DNA of 54,253 nucleotides from a virus (IMGVR_UViG_3300017589_000044:1-54253), one strand, 5' to 3'. Counted from the stretch's first letter, positions 4,552 to 47,587 are shown. Translations and numbers: made by a program. Notes: generated by a model from the sequence alone, not told the origin.

Positions 4552-4563
4552 AGGAGAAAAATA

Positions 4564-5736: not shown

Positions 5737-5737
5737 T

Positions 5738-6373
5738 ATGAATGAACAAAAATTTGAAACTTTCGCAAAAAATACAATTGTAGCACTTTCTAATATGAAT
5801 GAAGCAATTAATAATGTTCAACATGAAGCTGTGGCTGTGGCTGGTGATAAATTATCTAATTTGTCAGATGATTTTGAGAAGTATAAAAATTTAGTTGAGA
5901 TTAAATTGAAAAATCAAGATGCTTTAAATGTGGAACTTGTAGAATCTTCAAAGAAAGTTGCAAAAATGGAAAGTAAACTTGATACTTTAGAATTTGATGA
6001 TGAAGGAAGATTGCAAGAATTAAAGAAAACTTATCAAAAAAGAATTTTCTTCTTATGTGGAAATGATAAAAGCAATCCAGAATACATATTGTTTAGCGGT
6101 TCTTTATTAGCACAAATAAATATTTATTTACGAGAAAATCTTCATGTAAATTTAGTTAAAAATATTAGAACAAGTGATTTTCAAGGTGCAATGGTTCTTG
6201 CAAGAAATTATAAACCAGACAAATTTAAAATGAATAGAAGATTCAAAGATTTATTTAAAAAATATGAAAAAGAAACTTTAACAAAAGAGCAGAAAAAAGC
6301 AATGGATGAGTTATTAACTAGAATGGGCGGTACATTTAACATGGATAAATTATTCGGAGGTAGATGTGTATAA
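5738..6373 (+). CDS. Coiled-coil protein with ORF6C-like C-terminal domain
   Basis: RBS GGAGG before ATG 5738; LRENLHVNLVKNIRTSDFQGAMVLARNYKP resembles ORF6C. Confidence 0.55.
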   Translation: MNEQKFETFAKNTIVALSNMNEAINNVQHEAVAVAGDKLSNLSDDFEKYKNLVEIKLKNQDALNVELVESSKKVAKMESKLDTLEFDDEGRLQELKKTYQKRIFFLCGNDKSNPEYILFSGSLLAQINIYLRENLHVNLVKNIRTSDFQGAMVLARNYKPDKFKMNRRFKDLFKKYEKETLTKEQKKAMDELLTRMGGTFNMDKLFGGRCV

Positions 6374-8166: not shown

Positions 8167-8168
8167 AC

Positions 8169-8226
8169 TTGACGATTGATTTAAACATAATATACTGCCC
8201 TCTCTATATATATGGGGGGTAGTATA
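8169..8226 (+). promoter_or_regulatory. Promoter upstream of the RNAP gene, overlapping an inverted repeat
   Basis: TTGACG-16-TATACT; hairpin TATACTGCCCTC...GGGGGTAGTATA. Confidence 0.5.
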
Positions 8227-8270
8227 ACATTAGAGGGAGACAAGGTACTTGATATTAGGAGGAATAAAAC

Positions 8271-11042: not shown

Positions 11043-11815
11043 TTTTAAACGAAAAAGACTATGCTGAAAATACTATTGAGAATGGTACTATTGATAAAAA
11101 GCCATCACTTACATTAGGTATTTTGGCAAGATATTATTACCATCATTTGGGATATAGAAAAAGTAAGATTATTTCAGAATTAGATAGTTTTATGACAAAA
11201 AGTTATCCAAGGTACAATCCAGTAGATTGGGTTACAATTATTGAGAAATATGCTCATAAAGCAGGAAAATATAAATTACTTGAATTAGATGGAATATGGA
11301 TTACTACTAATGAGTTAAAAACTATAACTGATTTGAACAATAAAGTATTAGAAAGACTTGCATTTACACTACTTTGTTTGGCAAAGTTTAAAAATAAAAG
11401 AAATGAAAAGAATAATGGTTGGGTAAATAACGAAGATAGTGAAATTTTTAAATTGGCTAGGATTACAACTTCTGCTTTTGATAAAGACATTAGGTTTAAT
11501 CAATTAAGAAAATTGGGATTATTGGAATATGCTAGAAAGATCAGTAATCTAAATATTCAAGTGTTATATGTTGATGATGAAAGTAAAAATGAATTATTTA
11601 TTAGCGACTTTAGAGAATTAGGATACGAATACCTGCTATATAAAGGTGGTAGTTTTATTAGATGTGCCGATTGTGGTGTATTGACGAGGAAAACTTCTAT
11701 GAATAAAAAATACTGTAAATCTTGTAGTTCAGAAAATGAAAAAGATAATGCTAGACTTAGAAAACAAAATCAAAGAAAAAAAGAAAAACAAAATGTCACG
11801 AAGTTGAAAATTTAA
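11033..11815 (+). CDS. Conserved phage protein with C-terminal Zn finger (CxxC...CxxC)
   Basis: Frame open from 11030; likely ATT/ATA start near 11033-11039 behind AGGAAGG, overlapping the RNAP stop; ORF track start is 11123. Confidence 0.75.
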   Translation: MIIILNEKDYAENTIENGTIDKKPSLTLGILARYYYHHLGYRKSKIISELDSFMTKSYPRYNPVDWVTIIEKYAHKAGKYKLLELDGIWITTNELKTITDLNNKVLERLAFTLLCLAKFKNKRNEKNNGWVNNEDSEIFKLARITTSAFDKDIRFNQLRKLGLLEYARKISNLNIQVLYVDDESKNELFISDFRELGYEYLLYKGGSFIRCADCGVLTRKTSMNKKYCKSCSSENEKDNARLRKQNQRKKEKQNVTKLKI

Positions 11816-11938
11816 AATAACACTTCAAACCCTTGCTATGACTACGTTTGCGGACTTGCTAAAACAAACTGTAAAATTAGTATAAGGTAGAGTAATAAAC
11901 AAAATTATAATTTAGAAGTAGAAAATGGTTCTCTACAA

Positions 11939-12300
11939 ACTTATGAGGTCGGAACAGGCAGCCGACACACCATAGTGGTCTTTAAAGAGATGCAGATTGT
12001 CACCTGTCATAAGTACCTTAAATGATGGAAAATACCGCCCATCCTAAATTATTATCATATATGGTATTTGTAGTGTTACCTGTATATGATGCTTTAAATT
12101 TTCCTCGCTACTGGGGACACAAGCTGTCGAAGTAGCCAACACTGATTTTTTATTATACAGGATTGGGAGATGAACTAATATTTTAGTAGTGTTTAATCGC
12201 ACTGAGAAGATTATTTCTCGGATTTGAAGACGAGCCTGTATAGTAAAACTATCCATATGAAGGCACGGGTAATGCCCTACTCCAAATATTCAATATATGG
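11939..12300 (+). ncRNA. Cluster of multibranched structured RNA elements
   Basis: Closing stems ACTTATGA/TCATAAGT (11939-12014) and TATACAGG/CCTGTATA (12154-12242) with internal hairpins; no credible ORF. Confidence 0.45.
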
Positions 12301-12367: not shown

Positions 12368-12439
12368 GCACTTGTGGTCTAATGGCTATGATGACTGGCT
12401 TCCATCCAGTAGATAAGGGTTCAATTCCCTTTAGGTGCT
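12368..12439 (+). tRNA. tRNA-Gly(TCC), CCA not encoded
   Basis: Acceptor GCACTTG/TAGGTGC; anticodon arm ACTGG-CTTCCAT-CCAGT; T arm AAGGG-TTCAATT-CCCTT. Confidence 0.85.
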
Positions 12440-12485
12440 TACTCCACTCATCGGAGAATATTATAATAGAAAGAAGTGTATATTT

Positions 12486-12692
12486 ATTAAACCAATTAGT
12501 AAATTAGAAAAACAGTACGGAGATTCAAAAGGTTATATCGGAGAAGAATTTAACAGAACTTGCACAAAGAAATACTATGTACATGATACAATCGCTGCAA
12601 AAATCTGGTCTGATTTAGGCTACAACTTAGATCAAGTAGAAATTATTCGAAAAAATGACATTGAACGTGAAAAATTAGCAAGAGAGTTATAA
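12486..12692 (+). CDS. Small hypothetical protein
   Basis: ORF track start 12435 overlaps the tRNA; more likely ATT start at 12486 behind AAAGAAGTG. Confidence 0.55.
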   Translation: MKPISKLEKQYGDSKGYIGEEFNRTCTKKYYVHDTIAAKIWSDLGYNLDQVEIIRKNDIEREKLAREL

Positions 12693-12697
12693 CGCAT

Positions 12698-12991
12698 ATG
12701 GATGATGTGAGGAATTTTGAAATCGAGGAAACAGAAACTGGTTATAGAGTTAAACGAATTGATAATAAATTGAATCAACACACACATTTGAAAAATAAAC
12801 AGGCTTCAGAGGATTTAATTAAATATGTATGCCAAGAAAAGATACCGAAAAATACAGGATTTTACTATTTAACTAGCCTCATTAGATTATCTGTATCAGA
12901 ACATTATATTAAAAAAATAGAACAACTAATAGAAACTCGTAAACAAAAAGGACGGAAATCTGGATATCACAATAATTGCAAGAAATGTTAA
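12698..12991 (+). CDS. Hypothetical phage protein
   Basis: 97-aa ORF with HTHL motif and YYLTSLIRLS. Confidence 0.7.
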   Translation: MDDVRNFEIEETETGYRVKRIDNKLNQHTHLKNKQASEDLIKYVCQEKIPKNTGFYYLTSLIRLSVSEHYIKKIEQLIETRKQKGRKSGYHNNCKKC

Positions 12992-13111
12992 TTTTTTATT
13001 TTATACAGAAAAATGTATAATATTCTACTCATAACATTGTATCACACTTTTGTAAATAATAATATGTGAAAAGTAACCAGAATTTTAGTAAATAATTGGA
13101 GGAAATTATAA

Positions 13112-13357
13112 ATGGCAGGAAAACCACTAACTTATAAAAGAACAAAAACTGATAAAGTAACTATTAAAGGTGTTCTATCTGAAGATGCTACTGTTGTAAC
13201 TATTTTGGTAGAAGATGAAAACAAACAGAAAATTGAAAAAGATGTAAAAATAAAAGATTATCTCGACAACTTTATCGGAGAATCAGTAGAAATTATTATT
13301 TCCAACAAAACAGAAGAAGACTTATGTGACTCCCCTACTTCCGAAGATGAAGAATAA
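13112..13357 (+). CDS. YonK-like small protein
   Basis: RBS GGAGG; size and position before the metallophosphoesterase as in SPbeta. Confidence 0.6.
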   Translation: MAGKPLTYKRTKTDKVTIKGVLSEDATVVTILVEDENKQKIEKDVKIKDYLDNFIGESVEIIISNKTEEDLCDSPTSEDEE

Positions 13358-13359
13358 AA

Positions 13360-14589
13360 TTGAGAGGAATGAATGATATTTTAGATTTGACTAAACGTAC
13401 AGATGAAAATGAGCGTCAATATTTATGGAGAATTGGTGGATATATCAAAACTGGACATATTAAAAATTGGAAAGAAATTACTCCAATTTTAAATGAACAA
13501 TTAAGAGTAGATGAATCTGAATACAGGGATGAATCTGCTTACAGAAAGCCAGTACAATACGCTGAAGCATACTATGAAGACGTCTTTTCAAAAATGATTG
13601 ATGACCAGTATGCTAATGAAATAAAACTGCAAAAACGTGAATTAGAAAAAGAAAGAGTAAAATTATATTCAACTAAAATAGAATATAGTAGAGATATCAG
13701 ACAGCAGAGTAGATTTGAACTTTTTTACGAAAACGTAGCAAATGAAATTACAGTATTTGATTTACCAGAATTTGAAAAAATTGAATATTGTAATGATGAA
13801 AATGAACATATTTTGACCATAGCAGACATTCATGCTGGATCAAATTTTATCACAGAAACGAATGAATACTCTTTTGATGAATGTACAAGAAGATTTGGCG
13901 TTTTATTAAACCATATGATTTGGTATGTAAAGAATAATAATATTTCTAAATTAAAAGTGCTATGCCTCGGTGACGATATCCAAGGAATCCTTAGAATCAG
14001 TGACCTAAAGTTAAATGAATCAAGTGTTGTAAGAGCAACTGTATTTGTTGCTAAGGCAATTGCACAATTCTTAAATGACCTATCTTCATATTGTGAAATT
14101 GATTATTACCACTGCCCTACTTCTAATCATTCACAACTTCGCCCACTTAATAGTAAAGCAAGTGAAATTGCAAGTGAAGACGTAGAATATATTATTGGAA
14201 ATTACATAAAAGACGTATTAGTAAACAATGATAGAATTGAAATAAATACGAATTTTGGATATGAATACATTGAAATTCCAATATTTGATTTTAAAACTAT
14301 TGCAATGCACGGTCATCAGATTAAAAGCATTGAAAATTCATTAAAAGATTTGAGTTATCAGAAAAAAGTATTTTATGATACCGTATTTTTAGCCCATTTC
14401 CATGGTGGAAAAGAAATTGTAGTCGGAGAAACATCAACTAATGATACAGAAGTTTTGGTATGCCCTAGTTTCGTAGGAAGTTGCCCATATGCGGAAAAGA
14501 TTATGAAAGGTGCAAAACCAGCCTGTAAAGTTTTTGTTTTTAATAAGAAATATGGACACACAGATACACATAAAATAATTTTAAATTAG
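13360..14589 (+). CDS. Calcineurin-like metallophosphoesterase (YonJ-like)
   Basis: DIH, GDD, SNH, HGH, AHFH motifs. Confidence 0.85.
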   Translation: MRGMNDILDLTKRTDENERQYLWRIGGYIKTGHIKNWKEITPILNEQLRVDESEYRDESAYRKPVQYAEAYYEDVFSKMIDDQYANEIKLQKRELEKERVKLYSTKIEYSRDIRQQSRFELFYENVANEITVFDLPEFEKIEYCNDENEHILTIADIHAGSNFITETNEYSFDECTRRFGVLLNHMIWYVKNNNISKLKVLCLGDDIQGILRISDLKLNESSVVRATVFVAKAIAQFLNDLSSYCEIDYYHCPTSNHSQLRPLNSKASEIASEDVEYIIGNYIKDVLVNNDRIEINTNFGYEYIEIPIFDFKTIAMHGHQIKSIENSLKDLSYQKKVFYDTVFLAHFHGGKEIVVGETSTNDTEVLVCPSFVGSCPYAEKIMKGAKPACKVFVFNKKYGHTDTHKIILN

Positions 14590-34581: not shown

Positions 34582-35598
34582 GTGGATGATTTGGCTAGAG
34601 GTAGAGTATACAATAGGACTTTTACTCCAGAAAAATGGGAAAAAGTTTCTAAGAAAAACAAAGACATATTAACTGATTTCTTAGCAGAATATAGACAGCG
34701 TAAAAAAGCAAAAGGAACGATAGATGGATATTTTCAAGATTTGAGAATATTGTTCATTTATATTATGGAGAATTTAGATAATAGATGTATTTTAGAATTA
34801 AACAAAAAAGACTTTCGTGGAGTTGTATTGAGTTTGTCAGAAGATATGGATTTATCTACAAGTAGAGTAAATAGGATGAAAAGTGCTGTGAATAGTATGC
34901 TTACGTTTTGCGAGGAAGATGATGATTATGAGTATGAAGTAAACTATGCTAAAAAAGTAGCAGGACTTCCAAAACAAAGAGTTAGAGATAACGAAGACGA
35001 CTTCTTTTTTACATATGATGAATTCATAAAAGTACGAGATATTTTAGTTGAAAAAGAAGATTGGCAAAATGTAGTCTTATGGTCTATTGGATTTGATTCT
35101 GCTGGAAGAAAAAATGAGTTATTTCAAATTGACAAACATAAATTACTAGATGGAAATAAAACTAATATTGTTATTGGGAAAAGAAGTAAAAAGTTCCCTC
35201 TTGTGTATTTAGACGATACAAAAGAATTTATTAGAAAATATCTTGAAGTACGTGGTGATGATGAGATAGATTCTTTATGGATAAAAGGTACTGGAAAAGA
35301 TAAAACTTCTGTCACTCCTAATTCTTTATATGACAGAATCGTATCAATATCAAAAATATTATCTAAAGTGCGCGGTGATGAATGTAATATTTTCGTCCAT
35401 ACAATGCGACACGCTAGAGTTGAGTGTTTATTGCAAGGGGCAGATGACAGACTTAAAAATGCAGACGGTACTAATAGAAAGTATAGTATTGATGAAGTAA
35501 GAGTGTTTTGTCATCATGGTGATATTTCCACAACAGCCAGTTATGCAAAAGATCACTCAGAAGATACCATTAATGATATGTTTGGAATAATTGTCTGA
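34582..35598 (+). CDS. Tyrosine recombinase (YomM-like)
   Basis: Catalytic R (SAGRKNEL), K, HTMRH, H and Y (HGDISTTASY). Confidence 0.9.
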   Translation: MDDLARGRVYNRTFTPEKWEKVSKKNKDILTDFLAEYRQRKKAKGTIDGYFQDLRILFIYIMENLDNRCILELNKKDFRGVVLSLSEDMDLSTSRVNRMKSAVNSMLTFCEEDDDYEYEVNYAKKVAGLPKQRVRDNEDDFFFTYDEFIKVRDILVEKEDWQNVVLWSIGFDSAGRKNELFQIDKHKLLDGNKTNIVIGKRSKKFPLVYLDDTKEFIRKYLEVRGDDEIDSLWIKGTGKDKTSVTPNSLYDRIVSISKILSKVRGDECNIFVHTMRHARVECLLQGADDRLKNADGTNRKYSIDEVRVFCHHGDISTTASYAKDHSEDTINDMFGIIV

Positions 35599-35847
35599 CT
35601 TATAACCCTACCCTACATTTTTCAACATAATGCACAAATAAATTACAAAATTCCACAATTTTTTAGCATATCATATTTTAATAATCAAATGTTCAAAATA
35701 AAGTAAATATTTCTATTATACCAAAGAAACTGTATGGCAAACCATACAATTAATATGCCATAATTTACCAGTAGTCTACTTCAATTAAATTACCTATACT
35801 TTATGTTATTTAAAACTCATTTCGTAATAATATATAGGAGACGAAAA

Positions 35848-36054
35848 ATGTTTAGAACAAATCAATTGCGGAGAATAATGGGTGAACGGAAATTAAGTTT
35901 TAGACAATTAGCAAGAATGTCTGGAATTAGTTCAGGAGCTTTAAATCAAATAGAAAGGTGTGAAGAAGACCCAAAACAATCTACAATGATTGCAATTAGT
36001 AGAGCATTGAAACTTGACGTAACAGAAGTATTTAATTTGAACTGGCGAAAATAA
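35848..36054 (+). CDS. XRE-family HTH regulator
   Basis: LSFRQLARMSGISSGALNQIE; RBS AGGAG and ATG 35848. Confidence 0.85.
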   Translation: MFRTNQLRRIMGERKLSFRQLARMSGISSGALNQIERCEEDPKQSTMIAISRALKLDVTEVFNLNWRK

Positions 36055-36078
36055 AAGTGATTAGGGGAGATATTTGAT

Positions 36079-36273
36079 ATGTCAACAAAATGTGGGGTAA
36101 AAATTATAAAAGTGATAGGATATGTGGAAGGTATTATAGAAACAAGAATAATTGAAGAAGCAAATAGGTCTACTTATAATGAAGCAACACAGTTTATTGA
36201 GTCACACCATCATGATAATATTAGTTGGAAGATAATGCCATTAATATTTGAAAGAAGTGATTTTTCGCTATAA
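36079..36273 (+). CDS. Small hypothetical protein
   Basis: RBS AGGGGAG; terminator-like hairpin 36303-36333. Confidence 0.6.
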   Translation: MSTKCGVKIIKVIGYVEGIIETRIIEEANRSTYNEATQFIESHHHDNISWKIMPLIFERSDFSL

Positions 36274-36363: not shown

Positions 36364-38085
36364 ATGGACATTTTTAGTATGCTGATGAAAGTTGGTTTTG
36401 ATAAATCAACAACGGATGCTGAATATAAGAAGTTAATAGTCGAGCTAAAAAAGAATAAATTTGATATAACACCAAGTATTGACTTTGCAAAATCAAAACA
36501 AGAAGCAAAAAAACAGGTTTCTGAAATTGCAAAAATATTTGAGAAAAAGTTAAACCTTGATCCGAAAGATGCCAATAGATATGCTAATCAGTATTATGGC
36601 GAATTATTAAAAGGCATTAAGTCTGTTGAAAAAGAACAAGTAAAATTAAATAGTCTTCAACAGCAAAAAATATCAGATGGTCAGAGTAAATACTATGGAA
36701 GAATAAAAGACAATCTAAAAGAAATATATAATTTAGAGAAGAAACTTCCATCTGCCAAAAAAGAAGAAACAGCAGAAATACGAGATCAGATTAAATTATT
36801 GGAAAAAAGAAATAGTAATAATTATGGAGCGATAGATAGAAAAGGATTAAAAGACAACTCTCTGCAATGGGAAATAAATAACACAAAAGTTCTATATGAA
36901 AGTAGATTAAAAGTAAATAATGCAAAAAATGTAGATACGTCTAATGTTTCAAATATAAAAAAAGAAACAAATGCCGTAAAAGAAAGAATTGCAGCAGAGA
37001 AAAAAGTTCAAACAGAAATACAAAAAAGAAACAGTTTGGAATTACAAAAAGGAAGAACGTCCAGTAATATTGATACATTTGTAAAGCAAAACTCTAAAAT
37101 GTCAAAAGAATCTGTTAATAATTTTAGAGAATTACAGAAAACAATCAATGGAGTTAATGCAAAAGGTCTTCAAGATGTAAACACTCAACTTTCTACTCTT
37201 AAAAACAGAGTAAAAGAAAATGGAGAGATGGGAAGAAACTTTTTCGGTGAACTGAAAAATAATGCTGGGAAAGTAGCGAATTGGCTCGGAGCAACTGGAA
37301 TTATTTTTGCTGGAATTAACGGAATCAGACAGGCTGTTACAGAGTTAAAAGAAGTCGATACAATCTTGACAGAAATATCTAAAACTTCTGATAGAACAGA
37401 ACAGTCCTTGAAAAATCTAGGTGCTAGTTCTGTTGGAGTTGCTAATAAATATGGTGCTACGATTAGCGGATATTTACAAGGTGTCCAAGAAATGTCTAGG
37501 GCTGGTTTTAGCGAGAGTCAAGCAGAAGGATTAGGAGAAGTATCATCTTTAGCACAATCGGCTGGTGATATGACATCAGAATTAGCAAATAAATATTTAA
37601 TTGCTACAAATTTTGCTTATGATTACAAAGGTTCTGTTGAAAAATTAAACGGAGTTTTAGATGCACAGAATCAAATTACAAATAGAAATGCTTTGAATAT
37701 GTCAGACCTTGCAGAAGCAACAAAGGTTTCTGCGTCACAAGCTGCTGACTCTGGAGTTGCAATAGACCAAATGACTGCATCTGTTGGTACAATGATGGCA
37801 GTAACCCAACAAGGTGGTGAAGTTGCTGGTCGTGCATTCAAAGGTATTTTAATGAATATTCAACAAGTCGCTGGAGAAACAGATGATGGTGATATTATTG
37901 ATGAAGAATCATTAAAAAAGGTAGAAGCAAGATTACATTCTGTTGGTGTTGAATCAGAGTACATGAAAGATGGAATAGCCACGCTGAGAGAACCAATGAC
38001 TGTATTGAAAGAATTAGCACAAGTATATAACTCTTTACCAGAGAATAGTGCTGACAAAGCTGGAATTATTGCTGACATTGGTGGC
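36364..38085 (+). CDS. Tape measure protein exon 1 (574 codons)
   Basis: RBS AAAGGAG; TP901-type TMP core (VDTILTEISK, EMSRAGF, GEVAGRAFKGIL); ends ADIGG at the intron 1 5' splice site. Confidence 0.9.
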
Positions 38086-38524
38086 AGAATTTGCCACGTT
38101 ATGCAGAAATGTATAACTAGAACATATTTAAATGCAGGTAATGCCTAAAGCCTTACACCACAATATAAAGGAAACTATTATATGAAGGTTTGAAAACGTA
38201 AGGATGTCACAATGGCTGTTCATGCAACGAAGTACCCTAACGTAATCAATTGATGAAATTGACAGTCAAGTCGAGGGTAAACGCTCAACGACTATTCCCA
38301 TGTAGGGATTTAGAATAAGAATAATGGTGCAAATCCAGAATATCTAAATCATAAGAAGTACGGCACAATCGCAAATGGTGTGGGTGAAATCCCCTTAAAC
38401 GGAAAAAGTATGCTCTTAACAGGTAAAGCTGAAGGTGAAGAAATAGTCTAAACATCACATGAAAGTGTGAGAAGTTGCTAATAAACAACTGGTTAGATGT
38501 TGCGAATCTAATTGAATATAATTG
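38086..38524 (+). ncRNA. Group I intron 1 in TMP (439 nt, ORF-less)
   Basis: P1 GTGGCA/TGCCAC; P2 with GAAA loop; P3 CATATTT/AAGTATG; R CTCAACGACTA 38284-38294; S GAAGAAATAGTC 38437-38448; P9 with GAAA loop; terminal G 38524; P10 ATTT/AAAT; splicing restores IGG|KYRGNQ. Confidence 0.9.
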
Positions 38525-38845
38525 AAATATCGAGGAAATCAACTTTCTGCATTATTGAGCAATTGGGATATGTACGAAAAAATGATGTCCGATTACCAAA
38601 ATTCAGAAGGTTCTGCATTAAATGAAGCATTAAAAACAGCGAATTCTTGGGAAGGTTTACTTAATCAGATTTCCAATAACTGGACTTCTTTTGTTGGAAG
38701 TTTTGTTACTGATGGATTGGCTACTGGTGCACTTAAAACAGTAAATGGATTAACAAAAGGAATAGATTCTCTTGTAAAAAGCCTAGGAGCATTACCAACA
38801 GTAGCTCTGGCTGCTTTCGGGTTTTTAGCTTTCAAGAACATTGGT
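38525..38845 (+). CDS. Tape measure protein exon 2 (107 codons)
   Basis: KYRGNQLSALLSNW...SEGSALNE...KNIG continues the TMP core; no RBS before TTG 38522. Confidence 0.88.
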
Positions 38846-39724
38846 AGGACAAATAGTTGTTCTCTATTCAAAAATAATATAATTGAATATGCCCTTCTTG
38901 CCTAAGAATAAATTCAAAGGTAGGATTGTTTCGTGCTAGTCACACGTTAATGTTCTATAAAATATACCGTAATTGAGATTTACTATGTCTCAGTGCTGGA
39001 ACGATAAATGGAATAAATAGTATTATATGGCTACAACGTAATCAGAAATGATAAGCGTGAATGCACTCTGAAAGGATACCAGTAATGGTAAGAAAACATA
39101 TAATAGTTCATAAGGCGAAAGCCTAAGTGAAATGTCACAAGACTAAACCCACTATCAGCAACGGACTCTTACTTTAGTAGGAAGTGTTCACAGACTAGAA
39201 ACGGTATCGAGTATATAGATAGTTTTATATGCTTGTAATGGATAGTCGAAACGTAGAGTAAACTACCCTCTTGACCGAGGTAAAATCAAAACAGTATTAC
39301 TAACTGTTCTATTTTTTATAGTACGTCAATGACGAAGAAATAGATTAATTTGTAGGTGTGTCACTACCTTAGGTTGGGCGAGTGTGACAAAATAATGGCT
39401 GGCTGTCATCCATCAACTACGGCAAAAAAATAGTAGAAAAAAGACATCTACGCATTGACATTTAAAAACAACAAAAATTAATTATCTAGTTCTAATTGAA
39501 CGTTGGTGAACTAAATTCACTTCTTCTATAAGAGCCATTAACTTGGCTATTATTTATATGCGTAAATATAGTACAAAATGATTTAAAAATTAAACTTCTC
39601 ATGTGTAAGTTTTTTTAAAAATGTAGAATATTATAAAAATTTATGTTAATTTTTCACAATTCGGCAAAAAACAACCATAAAAAGTGTTAAAATGGTAGCA
39701 AAAGACGTAGAGGAGTGATATAGT

Positions 39725-39907
39725 ATGAGTACAGAGGATTACAAAAAAATAGATCAGGGGGATGATAATATGGGAGCAGAAGCAATAACTAGGAATTTTG
39801 TATATGAAATGAAAGTTGATAAGAATTCAACGAAGAAAGAACCAACAGTAGGTAGAGATATAATCGAGGAAGCTAAAAAGGTTTTATTGAAGTATAAGGT
39901 GAAATAG
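39725..39907 (+). CDS. Small partner of the GNAT protein (putative antitoxin); intron cargo
   Basis: RBS GAGGAG (alternative start 39770); 1 nt upstream of the GNAT gene. Confidence 0.65.
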   Translation: MSTEDYKKIDQGDDNMGAEAITRNFVYEMKVDKNSTKKEPTVGRDIIEEAKKVLLKYKVK

Positions 39908-39908
39908 T

Positions 39909-40436
39909 ATGTCATTATTGATTCAAAAGCTAGATGTGAGTAACTATTGTTTTGTAAATAAATTTAAAGTTAATTCAGAAAGTTGTGAAAATCCAAAGCA
40001 CTATGAAGACTATTTGAAACAAAATGCAATAACTGATTTCAAGCTAGGTGTCGGAACAACTCATATCTTTATTGATGAAGATCAACAAAATATAATGGGA
40101 TATTTTACACTTAAATCTTCTGCTTTAGTGAAAAATATGGGAGAGGAACATAATTTTGGATATCCAGCTATTGAGATTGCAGAACTTGCAGTACACAAAG
40201 ATTATGAACGAAAAGGAATAGGAACGGATATGTTAGATTTCGTTTTTTCAAAAATTGATGACATAAAAGAAATTGTGGCAGTGCAATATGTATTGCTTTG
40301 TGCTGATCCTAAAGCTGAACAGTTTTATTCAAAATCAAAATTTAAATTTCAAAGAGTTAGAAATTTTGAACAGATACCAAGAGAACATTGGAATCAGCAG
40401 TGTGTACCTATGTTTGTAAAGTTAAAAGAAACATAA
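39909..40436 (+). CDS. GNAT acetyltransferase (AtaT/TacT-like putative toxin); intron cargo
   Basis: IMGYFTL, YPAIEIAELAVHKDYERKGIGTDML, AEQFYSK. Confidence 0.85.
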   Translation: MSLLIQKLDVSNYCFVNKFKVNSESCENPKHYEDYLKQNAITDFKLGVGTTHIFIDEDQQNIMGYFTLKSSALVKNMGEEHNFGYPAIEIAELAVHKDYERKGIGTDMLDFVFSKIDDIKEIVAVQYVLLCADPKAEQFYSKSKFKFQRVRNFEQIPREHWNQQCVPMFVKLKET

Positions 40437-40467
40437 AAAAGAACTATCTTAATTGATGGTTCTTTTT
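40436..40467. terminator. Bidirectional intrinsic terminator inside intron 2
   Basis: AAAAAGAACTATC-TTAATT-GATGGTTCTTTTT. Confidence 0.75.
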
Positions 40468-40529
40468 ATATGTTTCAATATAAGTTAATCCCCTACTTTA
40501 TTTATATAAATCAAAATAATAAAATATAA

Positions 40530-40654
40530 TTTTGGACAGAAATAAACACCCAAAACAAATGCTTGGATGCTTATCTCTAAAACTAAACAATTAAATTTTT
40601 GACAAATGGTCAGTTTGCCTTTTGAAAGTTTGTTTTCATATACGAAATCTACAT
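40530..40654 (-). ncRNA. Candidate minus-strand sRNA
   Basis: Promoter TTGCAT-16-TATACT with extended-10 TG (40688-40661); 16-bp hairpin whose G-U pairs form only on the minus strand (40538-40578). Confidence 0.45.
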
Positions 40655-40824
40655 AAATATAGTATATCACATATTTAATTAAATGCAAGTGTTTTCATGT
40701 TAAATTAATTACACTTTTATGCCTAAAGATACAATTTAACGAGAATGGGATTGACCGATCTCATTGCATATGAACTCATTTCTTTAGCACAAGAACACTT
40801 TTAATTACTATATTTGGTATTGAA

Positions 40825-40914
40825 TTATTTTATGTAGTTTGCGATTGCAAGGACAGCCTGAACAACTGTGCATACAATCACTACTACACTAGCGGGTTGT
40901 TGTAGTTTTTTCAT
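40825..40914 (-). CDS. 29-aa hydrophobic peptide, type I toxin-like (MKKLQQPASVVVIVCTVVQAVLAIANYIK); intron cargo
   Basis: RBS GAAAGTGAGG; own promoter TTGTAT-16-TACAAT with extended-10 TG; one predicted TM segment with basic ends. Confidence 0.65.
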   Translation of the reverse strand: MKKLQQPASVVVIVCTVVQAVLAIANYIK

Positions 40915-41014
40915 ATATGACCTCACTTTCCTGTATCGGCTCGTAAGTTTCATATACGTGTTTACCCATATACGCAATTACAATTGTATCACAATTCGAC
41001 ATTAATACAAGTCG

Positions 41015-41026
41015 GAACATTTGTTC
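41015..41026. promoter_or_regulatory. Firmicutes LexA (SOS) box GAAC-ATTT-GTTC
   Basis: Matches GAAC-N4-GTTC; lies between divergent promoters. Confidence 0.65.
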
Positions 41027-41084
41027 ATTTTTCGACAATATTTTTAATTGTAAATATTTTTTGGAATTATTTTCATATTCACTC

Positions 41085-41113
41085 TTGACATCGTAACTCC
41101 AAAGTAGTATTAT
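41085..41113 (+). promoter_or_regulatory. SigA promoter for the HTH-antirepressor operon
   Basis: TTGACA-17-TATTAT. Confidence 0.75.
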
Positions 41114-41140
41114 GGATATTGTAACAGGGAGGTATGAAAA

Positions 41141-41338
41141 ATGTCAGATGTGAGATTAACATTCGTAACAAAGGAATTGGCTCAAAAATTTGATATGACT
41201 TCTAATTATATTATACAAGTTGCAAAGTCTTTGAATTTAAGTGAATCAGAAATGAGAGAAGCTGGGAAAAGGACATACTTGTTTAGTGTAGAAGCAGTAG
41301 AAAAAATAGGAGCTAAATTGGAAACGAACAAAAGATAA
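41141..41338 (+). CDS. Small HTH DNA-binding protein; intron cargo
   Basis: RBS GGGAGG; TKELAQKFDMTSNYIIQVAK...AGKRTYLFSVEAVEKI. Confidence 0.75.
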   Translation: MSDVRLTFVTKELAQKFDMTSNYIIQVAKSLNLSESEMREAGKRTYLFSVEAVEKIGAKLETNKR

Positions 41339-41448
41339 AAGAGCAACCCATCTACTTTGCACGGTGTAGGATTGCTCATACATAAACTTACATCTTTATA
41401 TTATCATATTTCTAAAACTATATCAATGTATTTTTAGGAGGAAATAAT

Positions 41449-42201
41449 ATGAAAAAAGAAGAAATGAAAGTATTAGAAGTTGTAAAGGAAACAAAGATTT
41501 TAGGTAAAAATATTCAAATGTATGGAGATATTAGAAATCCTTTATTTGTTGCAAAAGATGTAGCAGAATGGATTGAACACAGTAATTCCCGTTCAATGCT
41601 GAAATCTATTGATGAAGATGAAAAGGAAGTAAACATTGTTTACACCCTTGGAGGAAATCAAGAACAGTGGTTTCTGACAGAAGATGGATTATACGAAGTG
41701 TGTATGTCTTCCCGTAAACCTATCGCTAAACAAATGAAAAAAGGAATTAAACTATACCTCAAACAAATTCGTTTAACTGGTGGTTATATCCCTGTTGTCG
41801 AAGAAGATGATGATGTGACTATATTGGCGAAAGGTATGAAAATACTTCAAAGAACAGTCGAAGAAAAAGATGCGATTATAAAATCACAACAACCAAAAGT
41901 AGATTCTTACAATCGGCTTGTAAATGCAAGCGGAACTATGGATATGAATACTGTTGCGAAAGAAGTCGGCATTGGTGAATATAAATTATTCGAATATCTT
42001 AGAAACAAAAAAGTTTTATTTTTGAATCCAGATGGAAATAATATTCCTTATGAGAGATTTAGAAAAGAAGGAAAATTTGAGGTATTTGAAAAATTATGTA
42101 GAGACGGAAGTTATCGGTCTGTTACTAGAGCAACCAGAAAAGGATTAACTTACATAGAAAAACTTTTACGAAAAGACAAAATTGTCGGTGGTGTTTTATG
42201 A
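41449..42201 (+). CDS. BRO-N plus KilAC antirepressor; intron cargo
   Basis: PLFVAKDVAEWIEHSN...FLTEDGLYEV..SRKPIAK...IRLTGGY; QPKVD...KLFEYLR...TRKG. Confidence 0.88.
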   Translation: MKKEEMKVLEVVKETKILGKNIQMYGDIRNPLFVAKDVAEWIEHSNSRSMLKSIDEDEKEVNIVYTLGGNQEQWFLTEDGLYEVCMSSRKPIAKQMKKGIKLYLKQIRLTGGYIPVVEEDDDVTILAKGMKILQRTVEEKDAIIKSQQPKVDSYNRLVNASGTMDMNTVAKEVGIGEYKLFEYLRNKKVLFLNPDGNNIPYERFRKEGKFEVFEKLCRDGSYRSVTRATRKGLTYIEKLLRKDKIVGGVL

Positions 42202-42431
42202 TGCACTTCCCTATTGCTACAAAATCATACTTGAAAGTTATCACAGTCAATGTAAGAGATTTTTCGCACATGGAAGAACATCATAGTCCAATTAATGAAA
42301 TTCGTAAAGTTAAGTCTTACATGAAAAAATCTAAAGATGAGTTTGAAATATGTGAATTATATATTATGCACCCAGAACTTTTAACAGCAGAAGATAAGAT
42401 TGCATTAGATTCTTATTTTATTAAATATTAA
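42198..42431 (+). CDS. Hypothetical protein; intron cargo
   Basis: Overlaps the antirepressor stop (ATGA coupling); terminator follows. Confidence 0.6.
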   Translation: MMHFPIATKSYLKVITVNVRDFSHMEEHHSPINEIRKVKSYMKKSKDEFEICELYIMHPELLTAEDKIALDSYFIKY

Positions 42432-42440
42432 CCAAAAATT

Positions 42441-42468
42441 AGAGAGTGGTTTTATATCACTCTCTTTT
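42441..42468 (+). terminator. Intrinsic terminator inside intron 2, between convergent genes
   Basis: AGAGAGTGGT-TTTAT-ATCACTCTCT-TTT. Confidence 0.7.
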
Positions 42469-42497
42469 CATTGTGCTAATTTAATTAAAACTGTATC

Positions 42498-42980
42498 TTA
42501 TCTTCTTGGTTTCCATTTGTGACCACAGCGACCACAGCGATTCATAGTCGCACCACTTCCAATAAATCCAGTCATAACACTAAAACCTTTTCGTCCTGTT
42601 ACAACTGTACTACTGCCACATTTAGGGCATTTTGGAGCAACAGAACTAGGATCATAATGTATTGGTGATTCAATAGCTTGATTATCCATTCCTATTATTG
42701 GAGATTCATAATAATGTTCTTTTGGTTCACATTTAACTATTCCAACATCTTTACACATAACTGTCTTATCCGTATCTTCATCAATTATTTGAACCCTAAT
42801 ATCATGGTCTACAAATGGTTGCATTATCAATTTTACTTCTTCTAATGTTAGATTGATTGCCATAGTGAATGGTGTAGAATGTCTAATATCTAAAGTTTGT
42901 TGTAAATTGTAACCTAACACTTCATCAAGATAAATTCCAGAATAAATACTATCTCCATTAATTAATTTTAATGAATACAA
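42498..42980 (-). CDS. Zn-ribbon protein with L7/L12-CTD-like N-terminus; antisense intron cargo
   Basis: CPKCGS...CGRCGHKW; RBS GGTGGAG; own promoter. Confidence 0.75.
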   Translation of the reverse strand: MYSLKLINGDSIYSGIYLDEVLGYNLQQTLDIRHSTPFTMAINLTLEEVKLIMQPFVDHDIRVQIIDEDTDKTVMCKDVGIVKCEPKEHYYESPIIGMDNQAIESPIHYDPSSVAPKCPKCGSSTVVTGRKGFSVMTGFIGSGATMNRCGRCGHKWKPRR

Positions 42981-43056
42981 GATGCTCCACCGCCTTTTCT
43001 TTTTAGTAGTTCTATATATACAATACTAACAAACATAAAATAATATTCCCAACAAT

Positions 43057-43085
43057 ATTATACAACAGTTTGATATTCAATGCAA
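43057..43085 (-). promoter_or_regulatory. Antisense SigA promoter straddling the intron 2 3' splice site
   Basis: TTGCAT (43085-43080, in exon 3)-17-TATAAT (43062-43057, in the intron). Confidence 0.6.
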
Positions 43086-46000
43086 GTAAGTTAGTTGCGT
43101 ATGGAACAGCTTTAAAATCAACGACGACCAGTGTAGCAGAATTAACGGCGTTAACAGAAGGATTAAATGTCCAACAATCTTTAAATGTATTGTCAACTCG
43201 TAATTTAACTAAAGCAAATATTGAAAAAATTCTAACAGACAACGGAATTGCTGCATCTGAGGCACAAAAAGCAGCAGCTACAATAACATCAACTACGGTA
43301 AATGCAGGTGCGACAGCAGCAACTACTGCTTATACAACGGCTTTATGGGCTAATATCAAAGCATTAGGTGTTTGGATGGTAACGAATCCCGTCGGATGGC
43401 TTATATTAGCTGGGACTGCTATTTATGGAGTAGCCAAAGCTACCCAAGCAGCTACTACTACATTTGCAGAACACCAAGAGAACGTTAATGGACTAAAAGA
43501 AAACTATGCTAAACTCAATAGTGAATTAGACGCTTTAAAAGGTAAGGATGATTTAACTGCTGGGGAAACTAAAAGATTAGATTATCTCGAAAGAAGACTA
43601 GCACTTGAAGAAAAGATTTTAAAAACTGCGAATAAAAAACTTGCTGAAAGTGAAATTTCTGGCAAAGGGGATATTACAAGTGATGGAATTGTCGGTGATT
43701 CACTTACCACAAAAGCAAAATTTCTCACAGTTGATACAGATACGTCAACTCAACTTAAATCACTTGAAGATGTTAGGAGTAAAATTCAAGAATTAGATTC
43801 AACATCTTCTAATTATGAATCAACTGTTGAAAGATTGACAAACCAAGAAGAAGATATCACTTTAAAATTAGAAGGTCAAAAAAATACTTTAGATGAATTG
43901 GAATTGAAATATTTAGATTATGCGAATAAAATTCAGTCGTATTTAGATGCTGGAGTTTTTGACGATGATGCTGAACAGAAAGAAAAAATGCAATCATTAG
44001 TTGATGAATATAATTCTACTGCTGATCAAATTGAGGCAAGAAAAATATCCATAGCAATAGAACTTGGTGATTCTAGTTATGTATTTGAAACAGATATATT
44101 TAAAAAAGCCGAAAAGGATTTGGCTGATTTAGCAAAACAAGGGAAATTAACTTCAGATACTTTAGCCGATAATAAATACAAAGAATTATCTGCTTTAATG
44201 GATTTATTCGGTATCTCACTTGAAGATGTTATCGATAAATTGAATGGTGTAACATCTGAATCTGAAAATGCTATGTCCCCTCTTACGTCTAGCGTTGAAG
44301 AATATGGAAAAGCAATAGATTCTCTCCCAACGAAATTAGGAGAACTTGAAGAAATTCAAGCAAAAGTAAATGACGGATATTCTTATAGTTACGATGAAAT
44401 TGAAAAACTAAAAGAAAAATACCCAGAATTACAAAGTGCCATATATAGGACTGCTGAAGGTTGGGCAATTGAAAAAGGTGCAGTAGATGAATTATATACG
44501 TCTACTGGAGATTTAGGTTCTCAGTATGTAAATGTTCAACAAGCAATGAGTGATGCTTTAAGTTCTGATATGGCTATCAGATTGAGTAATTTAGGCATAG
44601 AACTAGAAGGAATTAAAACAATTGCAGATGCTTATGCCGCTATTGCAAATGTAGGTAGGAATACTTTACAAAGAGCTGGGGCTAGTGTACCTAACCTCGT
44701 TACTGGTGGTATTATGGATAAGAGCATCCAAAATGCCATAGGTAAAGCAGTTGTTGGTAAAGAAGGAGTCGACTTTACAAATAATTATGCTGTCAACACT
44801 TCTAAATTTGATGAGTTGCAAAAAAAAATGAAAGACTTGAAAGCTGGAGGGTTTTCTGGTGGAAAGTCAAGTGGCTCTGGCGGTTCTAAAGGAAGTGGAG
44901 GATCTAAAGGTAGCGGTTCATCAAAAGAAATTGATGCTTATAAATCTGAATTAGAACAATTCAAAAAGTTAGAAGCTGAATTAGAAAAAGTACAATCAGA
45001 TATCTCTGTTAATGAAAAGAAATACAGTAATACAGAAGACGAAAAAGAGAAAATCGCCCTACTTCAACAAAGAATTTCGCTTACACAGAAAGAACAAGTT
45101 GCTCTTCATAATTTAAACACTGCTAGAGATAAAGAAATTTCTAAAAATGTCGCCCTTCTTAAACAAAAAGGTTTTAAAGTTGCTTACAATCCAGATTCAA
45201 ATGAACTTGAAATTAAGAATATGGAACAACTTAACAAATTAAAATCTGGTGACCAAGAGAAAACGAATGAGTTAATCAAAGAATATGAAGAACTCATTAA
45301 GACGACTGAATCTCTAAACGAAGCAAATCAAAAAGGTTCTGAATCATGGTGGGATAGTTCTTATAATTTGGAAAAATATAAAAAAGAAATTGAAGATGTT
45401 AGACGGACTATTTTTGACAAAGATATTAACGATATGGACTTCTCTACCCTATTCTTTGATGGTGTTTCTGGAAAAGAAAATGAGTTAATTTCTGCTTATG
45501 ATGGTATTATTGCGAAAATACAAAACGAAACAAAACGTGAGTATGCCACAGGATTGACAGATAAAGACGATTATATTCAAGAATTGATTAAGAAAGAAAA
45601 AGATTACGTAGACAAAGTAAAATCTGTAAGAAAAGGTATTTATGATGCAGAATTAGCTAGTAACGACCATCTGTTAGACTTGTTGAAATCAAGAGATAAC
45701 ACTAAAAATCGTCAAATTGATATTGTTGAACAGAAGATGAAAAATGCAATGAAACGTAGACAGTCTTTGATTGATGAAGATTATTCTGCTAATATTGACG
45801 AAATTCAATCTCTTGAAAAAGCATGGACTCAATACTACGATGACTTATTGAATACGCAAATTGAGTATTTAAACAAGCAGAAAGAAGATAAAGATGGTGC
45901 ATTATCCGCTGTTAATGATTTAATTGATGAAAAAATTAAGGCTTTGAATAAGGAAAAAGAATCTCTTCAAGCAGTAAATGAAGAACATGACAAAGCTTTT

Positions 46001-47587
46001 AAATTATCTCAATTGAAAGCTAATCTTGACAAGGCTAATTCTCAACAAACATCAAAAATTTATAGAAAAGGTCAAGGGTTTGTAGACGAGGTAAATTTAG
46101 ATGATATTGAAACCGCAAAGAATGAACTTCGTGATTTTGAATTTGAACAACAAATTGATGCAATCGACAAACAGATTGATGCTTGGGACAAATATAAAGA
46201 TAAATGGGCAGAAATTCCTACTGCATTTGAAAAGGAACAAAATAAACTCAAAGCTATTCAAGAACTTGGAGTAAATTGGGAAGATAAAATTTCTAATAAG
46301 CGTATTGATATTGTTGATACTTTCAAAGATAATTATATCGATTTACAAGAAGATATTCAAGATATATCAGATGAATTAGCGGAACACATGAGTAATGCTT
46401 ATCAATCAATGGTGGACACATTTGCGAAAATGGCTAAACTATATGAGGGTAATGGTTCTGATAAATTAAATGGTATGAATAATGGTGCGAAAACATTCTA
46501 CTCTACTAAAGATGGTTCTGCTCCTTCTGGTGCTGGAATTGGTGATAAAATACTTACCAACAATGGCACATATCAAATTGTAAATGCTAATACGAAAGGT
46601 GCTAATTACAACGAAAAAACGCAACTTTGGAGTATAAAGCTGGATAGTACAAAACGTACAATACAGGATTCTTTGAGAGGAACAGAAGATTTAACGGATA
46701 AAGTTATACGTGCATCAAGTACGATAGATGAAAATTCACAAGGTGTTAAAGGTAACTCATCATCTTTAGAATATTTGTCTGGTAATACAGATGAGAATAC
46801 TCTTTCTACTGAAGATAACACTTCAGCTGACCATTTGAACACTGAAGCATTATATAATTTAAAGTCGTCTATGGATAACTTTGAGTTTAATACTGGTGAA
46901 GCTGGAGCAATTGGTGGTGGAGGAATTGGTGGTAGCAGTAGCGACTACACACGTACATATTCATATACGTGGTCTGATGGAACGACAACTTCTTCGTCTA
47001 GTAGCAACTACAATACAGCAAGAGATGAAGCTGGGAAAAGCAGTAATACATCTTTAGTAACATCTTCTTCATCTAGCACAAGGAATAGTTCTAGTGGTGG
47101 TTCTAGTAGTAAAGGATCATCTATTGGTAGTTCCATTAAGAATACAGTTTCAAAAATTGGTAGTGCAATTAAAAACGCTTTTAGTAAACACGCAGATGGT
47201 GTAATTGGAATTAATTCACCAGAAAATTCTATTGTAGATGAGTTAGGCAAAGAATTGCGTATTGAACCAGACAGAGGTAGATTAGTTTCAATGTCTATGG
47301 GTTCTAGTGTTATTCCTGCTCAAATTTCAAAAACATTATGGAAATTCGGAGAAAACCCAACAAGCTCACTCTCTGACATGATTAGAAATAATCCAGATAT
47401 ATTGAACAGTATTCGACCTAATAATTTTACATCACCTAAACTTAATCTGAATTCATCTGCTCCAGAACAAAAAACTGAAATTAGTTATAACTTTGGAGAT
47501 TTGAATTTACCTCATGTAACTGATGCAAAATCGTTGAGTAGAGAATTACCATTATTGGTTAAACAAATGATAGAAAAAAGAAAATAA
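43073..47587 (+). CDS. Tape measure protein exon 3 (1504 aa)
   Basis: TNPVGWLILAG TM segment, long coiled coils, HADG..VDELGKE motif; no RBS before TTG 43070; junction reads KNIG|IFNASK. Confidence 0.9.
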   Translation: MFNASKLVAYGTALKSTTTSVAELTALTEGLNVQQSLNVLSTRNLTKANIEKILTDNGIAASEAQKAAATITSTTVNAGATAATTAYTTALWANIKALGVWMVTNPVGWLILAGTAIYGVAKATQAATTTFAEHQENVNGLKENYAKLNSELDALKGKDDLTAGETKRLDYLERRLALEEKILKTANKKLAESEISGKGDITSDGIVGDSLTTKAKFLTVDTDTSTQLKSLEDVRSKIQELDSTSSNYESTVERLTNQEEDITLKLEGQKNTLDELELKYLDYANKIQSYLDAGVFDDDAEQKEKMQSLVDEYNSTADQIEARKISIAIELGDSSYVFETDIFKKAEKDLADLAKQGKLTSDTLADNKYKELSALMDLFGISLEDVIDKLNGVTSESENAMSPLTSSVEEYGKAIDSLPTKLGELEEIQAKVNDGYSYSYDEIEKLKEKYPELQSAIYRTAEGWAIEKGAVDELYTSTGDLGSQYVNVQQAMSDALSSDMAIRLSNLGIELEGIKTIADAYAAIANVGRNTLQRAGASVPNLVTGGIMDKSIQNAIGKAVVGKEGVDFTNNYAVNTSKFDELQKKMKDLKAGGFSGGKSSGSGGSKGSGGSKGSGSSKEIDAYKSELEQFKKLEAELEKVQSDISVNEKKYSNTEDEKEKIALLQQRISLTQKEQVALHNLNTARDKEISKNVALLKQKGFKVAYNPDSNELEIKNMEQLNKLKSGDQEKTNELIKEYEELIKTTESLNEANQKGSESWWDSSYNLEKYKKEIEDVRRTIFDKDINDMDFSTLFFDGVSGKENELISAYDGIIAKIQNETKREYATGLTDKDDYIQELIKKEKDYVDKVKSVRKGIYDAELASNDHLLDLLKSRDNTKNRQIDIVEQKMKNAMKRRQSLIDEDYSANIDEIQSLEKAWTQYYDDLLNTQIEYLNKQKEDKDGALSAVNDLIDEKIKALNKEKESLQAVNEEHDKAFKLSQLKANLDKANSQQTSKIYRKGQGFVDEVNLDDIETAKNELRDFEFEQQIDAIDKQIDAWDKYKDKWAEIPTAFEKEQNKLKAIQELGVNWEDKISNKRIDIVDTFKDNYIDLQEDIQDISDELAEHMSNAYQSMVDTFAKMAKLYEGNGSDKLNGMNNGAKTFYSTKDGSAPSGAGIGDKILTNNGTYQIVNANTKGANYNEKTQLWSIKLDSTKRTIQDSLRGTEDLTDKVIRASSTIDENSQGVKGNSSSLEYLSGNTDENTLSTEDNTSADHLNTEALYNLKSSMDNFEFNTGEAGAIGGGGIGGSSSDYTRTYSYTWSDGTTTSSSSSNYNTARDEAGKSSNTSLVTSSSSSTRNSSSGGSSSKGSSIGSSIKNTVSKIGSAIKNAFSKHADGVIGINSPENSIVDELGKELRIEPDRGRLVSMSMGSSVIPAQISKTLWKFGENPTSSLSDMIRNNPDILNSIRPNNFTSPKLNLNSSAPEQKTEISYNFGDLNLPHVTDAKSLSRELPLLVKQMIEKRK

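Follow-up and report, generated by a model that had tools for sequence, protein, structure and literature searches.

The window analysed here is the whole of IMGVR_UViG_3300017589_000044, a complete IMG/VR virus record of 54,253 bases that is estimated to represent about one third of a genome. Its tail tape measure protein (TMP) locus appears in the open reading frame (ORF) list as three plus-strand pieces, at 36364-38148, 38522-38905 and 43070-47587. To judge from the nucleotide and protein comparisons below, the locus is likely to be a single TMP gene split by two group I introns that are unrelated to each other and expected to self-splice; the phage would be large, temperate and siphovirus-like. 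The parts are arranged as follows.

36364..38085, plus strand: TMP exon 1, 574 codons, with PF10145 and phrog_4211 458-840
38086..38524, plus strand: putative intron 1, group I, 439 nucleotides (nt), no ORF
38525..38845, plus strand: TMP exon 2, 107 codons, with phrog_4211 840-944
38846..39400 (3' limit approximate), plus strand: putative intron 2, 5' ribozyme part, recognized by core elements and covariation
39401..43039, both strands: intron 2 cargo, from Pfam, PHROGs, and ORF and signal scans
43040..43072, plus strand: putative intron 2, 3' end, read from the sequence
43073..47587, plus strand: TMP exon 3, 1504 codons plus stop, with phrog_4211 1140-1680

Joining 36364-38085, 38525-38845 and 43073-47587 gives a protein of 2185 amino acids (aa; 574 + 107 + 1504 codons) in which the sole stop is terminal. 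The residues at the junctions are ADIGG/KYRGNQ (junction 1) and KNIG/IFNASK (junction 2). A previous sequence-only reading of the window had proposed this in-frame fusion, and both frame and junctions were reproduced on recomputation. The same reading placed both introns in phase 0, where skipping of exon 2 would preserve the frame, and the frame lacking exon 2 is indeed open for 2078 aa. A single TMP profile, phrog_4211, covers all three pieces in order: profile positions 458-840 correspond to residues 183-575 of piece 1, 840-944 to residues 2-103 of piece 2, and 1140-1680 to residues 131-698 of piece 3. PF10145 (PhageMin_Tail) is found in exon 1 at residues 360-574 (E 3.9e-15), and the tblastn matches of the locus are annotated TMPs.

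The exon joins were judged against 44 loci encoding a related TMP in species-representative genomes, the majority of them assemblies of Lachnospiraceae and other Clostridia. Matches to both exon 1 and exon 2 are present in 42 of the loci. Of the other two, L050 is cut short by the end of its contig and L039 is itself interrupted by an intron at the junction 1 site. In 30 of the 42, the equivalent of exon-1 residue 574 is followed at the next base and in the same frame by that of exon-2 residue 1. A further ten, whose alignments are trimmed at the ends, are colinear. Of the last two, one contains 3 additional nt and in the other a second match confounds the comparison. The motif GGK(Y/H/L)R runs uninterrupted across junction 1 in all six database proteins fetched. 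An allele devoid of intron 1 was also encountered as DNA: in a contig of metagenome run X1, six other letters connect 38086 to 38532, and the frame reads GGC AAG TAC AGA GG (G-K-Y-R-G) with synonymous changes. Junction 2 was aligned in 18 of the 44 loci. Uninterrupted loci read K(D/N)YG-(I/L)T(Q/K), gapless against KNIG-IFNASK; L041 reads KDKG-IFKVV, again gapless, and the fetched protein P0011 is uninterrupted with KDNG-ITQVV. Deleting the two putative introns restores the host frame exactly as it stands in uninterrupted homologues, which place both junctions where the sequence-only reading had put them. Its description of the relatives as SPbeta-like holds loosely, in that SPbeta-like Staphylococcus phages match exon 1 at approximately 22%; the close relatives are instead TMPs of Clostridia prophages, at 33-55% identity.

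Elements assigned within intron 1 are listed by position.

38089-38092, plus strand: P10 strand
38093-38097, plus strand: P1 strand, GCCAC
38123-38129 and 38406-38412, plus strand: P3 and P3'
38290-38294, plus strand: P7 5' strand
38493-38511, plus strand: terminal hairpin; the last base of the intron is G

An R-like element, CTCAACGACTA, lies at 38284-38294 and an S-like element, AAGAAATAGTC, at 38438-38448. The P7 5' strand and P3' are approximately 110 nt apart, with several helices inserted between them. The guide sequence AUUU-GCCAC pairs with the end of exon 1 (GUGGC, a P1 of 5 base pairs (bp)) and with the start of exon 2 (AAAU, a P10 of 4 bp). Homologues were identified in L039, at the same TMP site (77.5% identity), and in L004 (MT835469.1, a 176-kilobase (kb) fecal phage), again within the TMP gene (76% identity). 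The covariation set thus comprises four sequences: the window, L039 and two introns of L004. The structure tested includes P2, P3, P4, P7, P8 and P9, together with several helices between P7 and P3'. In this family 93.7% of cells are paired. Compensatory change is seen at 39 of 84 pairs, where slid controls give 3-7, and all 84 consensus pairs form in the window copy. The putative intron 1 belongs to a lineage that is found at several TMP sites in relatives.

The one unconventional feature of intron 1 is its 5' splice site, where the exon ends in a C that pairs with G, in place of the U of a U-G pair. By eye, all four family members have this C-G pair (GGC/A three times, GAC/A once), at three different TMP sites (window 38085/38086; L039 11188/11189; L004 ~5973/5974 and ~4115/4116), and the P10 strand, of 4-6 bp, lies directly 5' of the splice-site G. 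The base at this position is described as 'virtually always a U (or exceptionally a C)' in the part of PMC4227781 that treats it. An alternative 5' splice site after GGT (38082) would provide a U-G pair. It was rejected because it would drop one Gly that is kept in the homologues and in the intron-less allele. The two related introns of L004 lie within a TMP gene at 2752-8488; by eye, their joins agree with the resulting protein alignment and each has a P10 of 6 bp. Each of them also carries a large endonuclease-like ORF (treble-clef zinc finger / CapR / DUF723) between the core and the conserved 3' terminal hairpin, and the loop of that hairpin (GTTGCGA or GTTGTGA) covaries with a stretch of the core (TCGCAA or CCACAA).

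Intron 2 is 4227 nt long, and its catalytic elements are all contained in the first ~550 nt.

38882-38890, plus strand: P10 strand, ATTGAATAT
38891-38893, plus strand: P1 strand, GCC
38964-38970 and 39201-39207, plus strand: P3 and P3'
38995-38999 and 39155-39159, plus strand: P/Q-like P4
39193-39197, plus strand: P7 5' strand
39238-39247, plus strand: S element, with a short P8 between P3' and S

The R element, GTTCACAGACTA, occupies 39186-39197. Only 3 nt separate the P7 5' strand from P3', and the insertion of intron 1 has no counterpart here; this is the structural difference between the two introns to which the sequence-only reading had drawn attention. The guide ATTGAATAT-GCC (38882-38893) has 9 nt of complementarity to the beginning of exon 3, 4.2 kb downstream, and its GCC can pair with the GGU ending exon 2, giving U-G at the splice site. 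A 9-nt match was reached at 9 of 7748 control positions. The exactness of the junctions in homologues and the rarity of such a guide match in controls indicate that the observation exceeds chance. The 3' end consists of an 8-bp hairpin (43040-43061, loop CCCAAC) followed by ACAACAGTTTG, which leads to the terminal G at 43072.

Two loci, L029 (73.9% over 230 nt) and L048 (68.4% over 370 nt), have a homologue of the intron 2 core at the same TMP site. With the window they form a covariation set of three sequences, in which 94.1% of cells are paired. Of the 126 pairs, 35 show compensatory change; slid controls yield 2-8. All three sequences form 7 of 7 pairs in P3, and both P3 and P7 contain two compensatory columns. 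A core stretch of 31-37 nt (~39030-39065) recurs at 84-97% identity in eight phage records, in unannotated DNA between the halves of split genes; among these genes are the lysin of a staphylococcal Twortvirinae phage and the helicase of a Bacillus phage. The match to the region between the lysin exons of vB_SauM_JDF86 is 96.8% over 31 nt, and the staphylococcal lysin intron is one that we take to be an established group I intron.

P3, P4, P7 and P8 are maintained with compensatory changes in the relatives of both introns, the P3-P7 pseudoknot is present, and in the window both introns have a P10 pairing with the 3' exon and a terminal G. P/Q, R/S, P4, P7, the P3-P7 pseudoknot and P8 are among the group I core features listed in the consulted portion of PMC3984707. 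The proposal that two different group I introns are involved is supported, the two inserts behaving as members of distinct group I lineages. The Rfam group II models returned no match at gathering score in the window or at E <= 10 in 37800-43400, and scans of both introns with Pfam and PHROGs detected no LAGLIDADG, GIY-YIG, HNH, PD-(D/E)xK or EDxHD nuclease. IMG/VR scans yielded no relative with exon 3 as the query and 0 matches to a 19-nt R-region pattern.

Several observations weigh against the two-intron interpretation. The Rfam model Intron_gpI, which may be poorly sensitive for phage IA-type introns, gave no match at gathering score in the window or at E <= 10 in 37800-43400. Covariation was assessed on small sets of 3 and 4 sequences, and the alignments used for it also contributed to the structures. 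A single X1 contig, of depth 2.6 and with only 27 nt on one side, represents the intron-less allele. In intron 2, the P1 of the window has only 3 contiguous exon pairs, against 6 in L035 and L044, and 108 of the 126 consensus pairs form, against 119 in L029 and 125 in L048; the missing pairs are mostly in peripheral helices. The complementarity between the CCCAAC loop and GTTGGG at 39373-39378 is at chance level (1991 of 2000 shuffles). Finally, the TMP transcript could be stopped by features situated between the ribozyme and exon 3, namely two plus-strand terminator-like hairpins and a convergent antisense gene.

One rival explanation holds that the inserts are ordinary insertions and not ribozymes, so that three separate products of 594, 127 and 1505 aa would be made. 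The silence of Rfam agrees with this, as does the behaviour of gene callers, whose proteins for relatives (P0006-P0010) are truncated at these sites. Set against it are the P3-P9 helices backed by covariation, guide sequences that match both exons in every bounded case together with the terminal G, phase-0 joins that reproduce uninterrupted homologous sequence exactly, and the intron-less allele. The 127-aa and 1505-aa ORFs, moreover, begin at TTG codons that are not preceded by ribosome-binding sites: neither TTG 43070 nor the in-frame starts that follow it in exon 3 have a Shine-Dalgarno motif in front of them, whereas such motifs are present before the TMP start and the plus-strand cargo genes. 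Ordinary insertion is scarcely credible on this evidence. The fragmentation of the locus by automated annotation, foreseen in the sequence-only reading, is evident both in the three ORFs called here and in the fetched database proteins, five of six of which (P0006-P0010) end a few to ~60 residues past site 2, the position of intron 2.

Homologous site-2 introns of 1.2-6.4 kb are present in Clostridia prophages. Four examples, including that of the window, are bounded on both sides.

L035: 1241 nt, P10 of 8 bp, exon 3 open for 2322 codons
L028: 1384 nt, P10 of 7 bp, exon 3 open for 2322 codons
Window: 4227 nt, P10 of 9 bp, exon 3 open for 1504 codons
L044: 6434 nt, P10 of 5 bp, exon 3 open for >1080 codons

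The four share an exon ending in GGT, an intron with G as its last base and a P10 strand immediately 5' to GCC. L035 and L032 have 5' parts homologous to that of the L044 intron, and 32 of the 70 pairs predicted there are compensatory. When the TMP frame was followed past the start of exon 2 in 42 loci, 24 ran for >1000 codons, four reached the contig end and 14 stopped at 112-159 codons. The 14 early stops include the three bounded introns of relatives (L028, L035, L044), three loci in which TMP resumes downstream (L033 after ~2.9 kb, L031 after ~7 kb, L027 after <= ~6.8 kb), and six in which exon 3 was not found in the contig sequence (L029, L032, L036, L038, L048, L049). Site 2 is, by this comparison, an insertion hot spot. 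The remaining two, L017 and L043, were rejected as introns, being plain frameshifts with no inserted DNA. Their frame changes a few codons past site 2 (L017 ~11600, L043 ~11200-11290), and assembly error, decay or programmed frameshifting could be responsible. In L036 (a contig of Acetatifactor muris DSM 23669), a GmrSD_N / NsnA-like defence-type gene (12402-13427; PADLOC NsnA E 1.5e-30) lies ~1 kb past the site-2 intron core, and a search of the 7.6 kb beyond the core revealed no exon 3.

Between the ribozyme and the short 3' tail, intron 2 of the window accommodates ~3.7 kb of cargo.

39725-39907, plus strand: 60-aa ORF
39909-40436, plus strand: GNAT acetyltransferase
40436-40467, plus strand: terminator-like hairpin 1
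41085-41113: promoter-like site, 11 of 12 consensus positions
41141-41338, plus strand: 65-aa ORF
41449-42201, plus strand: Ant antirepressor (Bro-N + KilAC)
42198-42431, plus strand: 77-aa ORF
42441-42465, plus strand: terminator-like hairpin 2
42498-42980, minus strand: Zn-ribbon ORF, 160 aa, whose start is 92 nt from the 3' splice site

Plus-strand promoter-like hexamers also occur at 42853-42880; promoter-like matches overall are not above shuffled expectation (71 found vs 59.9 +/- 8.7). Neither strand of the ~600 nt at 40468-41084 contains an ORF >67 aa, and Rfam gives no match there. None of nine proteins scanned with Pfam and PHROGs, six of them cargo ORFs, belongs to a transposase family, and PADLOC gave no match for any cargo ORF of the window. 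With their own promoter-like sites and ribosome-binding sites, the cargo genes are probably expressed independently, in the manner of morons.

The cargo turns over. In a relative from run X2, the GNAT cassette (39568-41060) is replaced by 29 other letters, while the adjoining intron parts and exons are present in the same run. In L031 an Ant gene with 66-70% nucleotide identity to that of the window is followed by minus-strand Zn-ribbon ORFs and then by exon 3. L044 probably has the same order of Ant (plus), Zn-ribbon (minus) and exon 3, although the 252-aa plus-strand ORF at the Ant position has no Pfam match; its 6.4-kb insert also contains an IS110-type transposase fragment. L035 carries a different antisense ORF of 216 aa, apparently membrane-spanning by eye. 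The antisense ORFs of the window and of L028 (11899-12486, minus strand) have a common C-terminal domain (41% over 78 aa, E 5e-17). This Zn-ribbon module of ~50 aa, KCPKCGS...GFS..TGF.G.G...C..CG.KWKP, has 1230 clusters at E <= 0.001; among the matches listed it is C-terminal, behind variable N-terminal parts, and it recurs as an antisense gene adjoining the 3' splice site of site-2 introns. The antisense ORF of the window was considered as a known homing endonuclease and rejected, only zinc-ribbon families being matched. Similarly, 28 scanned proteins of 150 listed module relatives (P0016-P0164) matched zinc-ribbon families only. Word-based search recovered only near-identical copies of the ORF, tblastn found none in phages, and the Atlas holds only unnamed zinc-ribbon clusters.

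Intron 2, at 4.2 kb, bears five or six unrelated genes, one of them antisense, along with promoter- and terminator-like sites, a feature on which the sequence-only reading did not comment and which makes cis-splicing less certain. Intron 2 may once have spliced and now be dead, with exon 3 cut off; the virus would then be a defective or decaying prophage, or its TMP would consist of two polypeptides. The terminator-like sites and antisense gene of the insert are in keeping with such decay, as are the weak P1 of 3 bp, the lowest pairing of the three relatives, the start-capable TTG at 43070 directly before exon 3, the integrase-like gene just upstream, which is consistent with a prophage, and the missing exon 3 of L036. 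Exon 3 nevertheless remains open for 1504 codons, and TTG 43070 has no Shine-Dalgarno motif. The exon-3 frames of L035, L028 and L044 are likewise open, each with P10 complementarity to its own exon 3. The order of Ant, Zn-ribbon and exon 3 is retained in distant relatives, which is unlike fresh wreckage. Taken as a whole, we consider decay of intron 2 unlikely.

A second alternative accepts the ribozyme and divides its intron. One RNA, comprising exon 2 and the ribozyme, would end in the cargo, and another, starting 3' of 42441-42465, would comprise the 3' tail and exon 3; the halves would be joined in trans by the 9-bp P10 and possibly other pairings. The internal terminator-like sites and the plus-strand hexamers at 42853-42880 could serve such an arrangement, and the catalytic parts all lie 5' of the cargo with only a short tail 3' of it. 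Trans-spliced group I introns exist in organelles, according to the consulted part of PMC3873408. The promoter-like matches, as noted, are no more frequent than in shuffled sequence, and there is no extended complementarity between the halves beyond chance. Pairing of the last 60-70 nt with the 5' part of site-2 introns does not exceed chance either, the best complements being 8 nt in the window (761 of 1000 shuffles), 9 nt in L035 (273 of 1000) and 10 nt in L028 (48 of 1000). To our knowledge, no trans-spliced group I intron has been described in a bacterium or phage, which also counts against this model, and we judge it quite improbable.

For the preferred model of two cis-spliced introns, the following course of events is envisaged. 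(i) A late transcript would span exon 1 through both introns. (ii) Both introns would be removed by GTP-initiated self-splicing, yielding an mRNA for the 2185-aa TMP. (iii) Folding and splicing of intron 1 would be conventional except for the C-G splice-site pair. (iv) The intron 2 ribozyme would fold from the first ~550 nt and cleave after GGU. (v) Once exon 3 had been transcribed, the 3' splice site would be chosen by the 9-bp P10 and the terminal G, and ligation would follow. (vi) The cargo genes would probably be driven by their own signals. The exon joins, the conserved RNA structure, the guide pairings, the turnover of the cargo and the recurrence of the layout in relatives were observed; splicing itself, passage of the polymerase through the two terminator-like sites and separate expression of the cargo belong to the model. 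Since a virion with a lambda-type tail requires few copies of TMP, it might be enough if these two sites were read through in part. Purely as conjecture, the dependence of tail assembly on splicing might act as a 'post-transcriptional checkpoint', as the sequence-only reading imagined.

Because the cargo lies within an intron, it could be gained, lost or exchanged without destroying TMP. We put forward tentatively, as a possibility and not as the favoured conclusion, that the site-2 intron is more than a selfish intron and offers accessory genes a 'safe-harbour' island in the temperate phages of Clostridia and relatives. The ribozyme would remove anything placed between the P9 region and the 3' tail, so that moron, antirepressor and defence-type genes might accumulate and turn over there, antisense genes with their own promoters and terminators included; the bounded inserts span 1.2-6.4 kb and one of ~7 kb is likely. 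If this were correct, TMP synthesis would need both read-through of the cargo and long-range choice of the 3' splice site by P10, and tail production would be coupled to late-phase antitermination.

A TMP gene with two group I introns is an already known arrangement. Prophages of the Bacillus cereus group were described in 2008 as having up to two group I introns per TMP gene (TMP-IVS1/2/3; Tourasse and Kolsto, PMC2504315). In the part of that account consulted, the resemblance extends to different structural lineages within one gene (IA2 and IA1 there), to related introns with guides adapted to different TMP sites, and to some copies without an endonuclease gene. The introns described there are, in contrast, of conventional size, occupy other insertion sites and, in the same part of the account, have no reported multi-gene non-endonuclease cargo. 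A megablast of the whole locus against phage records gave no match, and no similarity to the B. cereus-group records was detected. Splicing of the ICP1 TMP intron was established by RNA-seq and reverse-transcription PCR (2023, PMC10448857, as excerpted). Like that intron and those of the Twortvirinae lysins, the two described here would be self-splicing introns in an essential late gene; they differ from homing-endonuclease phage introns in having no recognizable homing endonuclease.

The closest architectural parallel is with the IStrons of Firmicutes (CdISt1, BcISt1). As presented in the consulted parts of PMC4227781 and PMC3984707, these combine a complete group I ribozyme at the 5' end, foreign genes past the P9 region and a distant 3' splice site; the insertion sequence (IS) lies downstream of P9.2 (PMC4227781), and group B IStrons have a non-U base at the 5' splice site. 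Their cargo is, however, IS200/IS605 or IS607 with both ORFs forward, and IStron sizes range over 482-2582 nt, whereas intron 2 of the window has no transposase match, includes an antisense gene and measures 4227 nt. Its size alone is not unprecedented, since the same portion of PMC4227781 mentions that, elsewhere, such group I introns can accommodate further genes and attain ~20 kb. No phage or bacterial group I intron with multi-gene cargo that is neither endonuclease nor IS was found in the literature, consulted mostly as abstracts, which makes this a weak negative.

What is unusual at this locus is the cargo-laden lineage of site-2 introns and the C-G splice site of intron 1. Phage and bacterial group I introns are thought to carry nothing, an endonuclease or, as IStrons, a transposon. 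A lineage bearing kilobases of unrelated, independently expressed genes, some of them antisense, would widen the capacity ascribed to such introns and would suggest a hidden hot spot for accessory or defence-related genes within an essential structural gene. With Rfam silent, tail-length prediction and TMP-based classification would be wrong for these phages unless the introns were modelled.

Directly 5' of the TMP start, at 34582-36273, where tail chaperone genes would be expected, the window has an integrase-like ORF (phrog_1, E 6.6e-22) and a helix-turn-helix regulator ORF. One X1 contig is without 35664-36247 and has 27 letters instead, so the flank upstream of TMP is also variable. Elsewhere in the window, a skipping-rope RNA (RF02924) was identified on the plus strand at 11938-12015 (58.6 bits vs a gathering score of 36.7), and ~350 nt 3' of it lies a plus-strand tRNA gene at 12368-12439 (59.7 bits).

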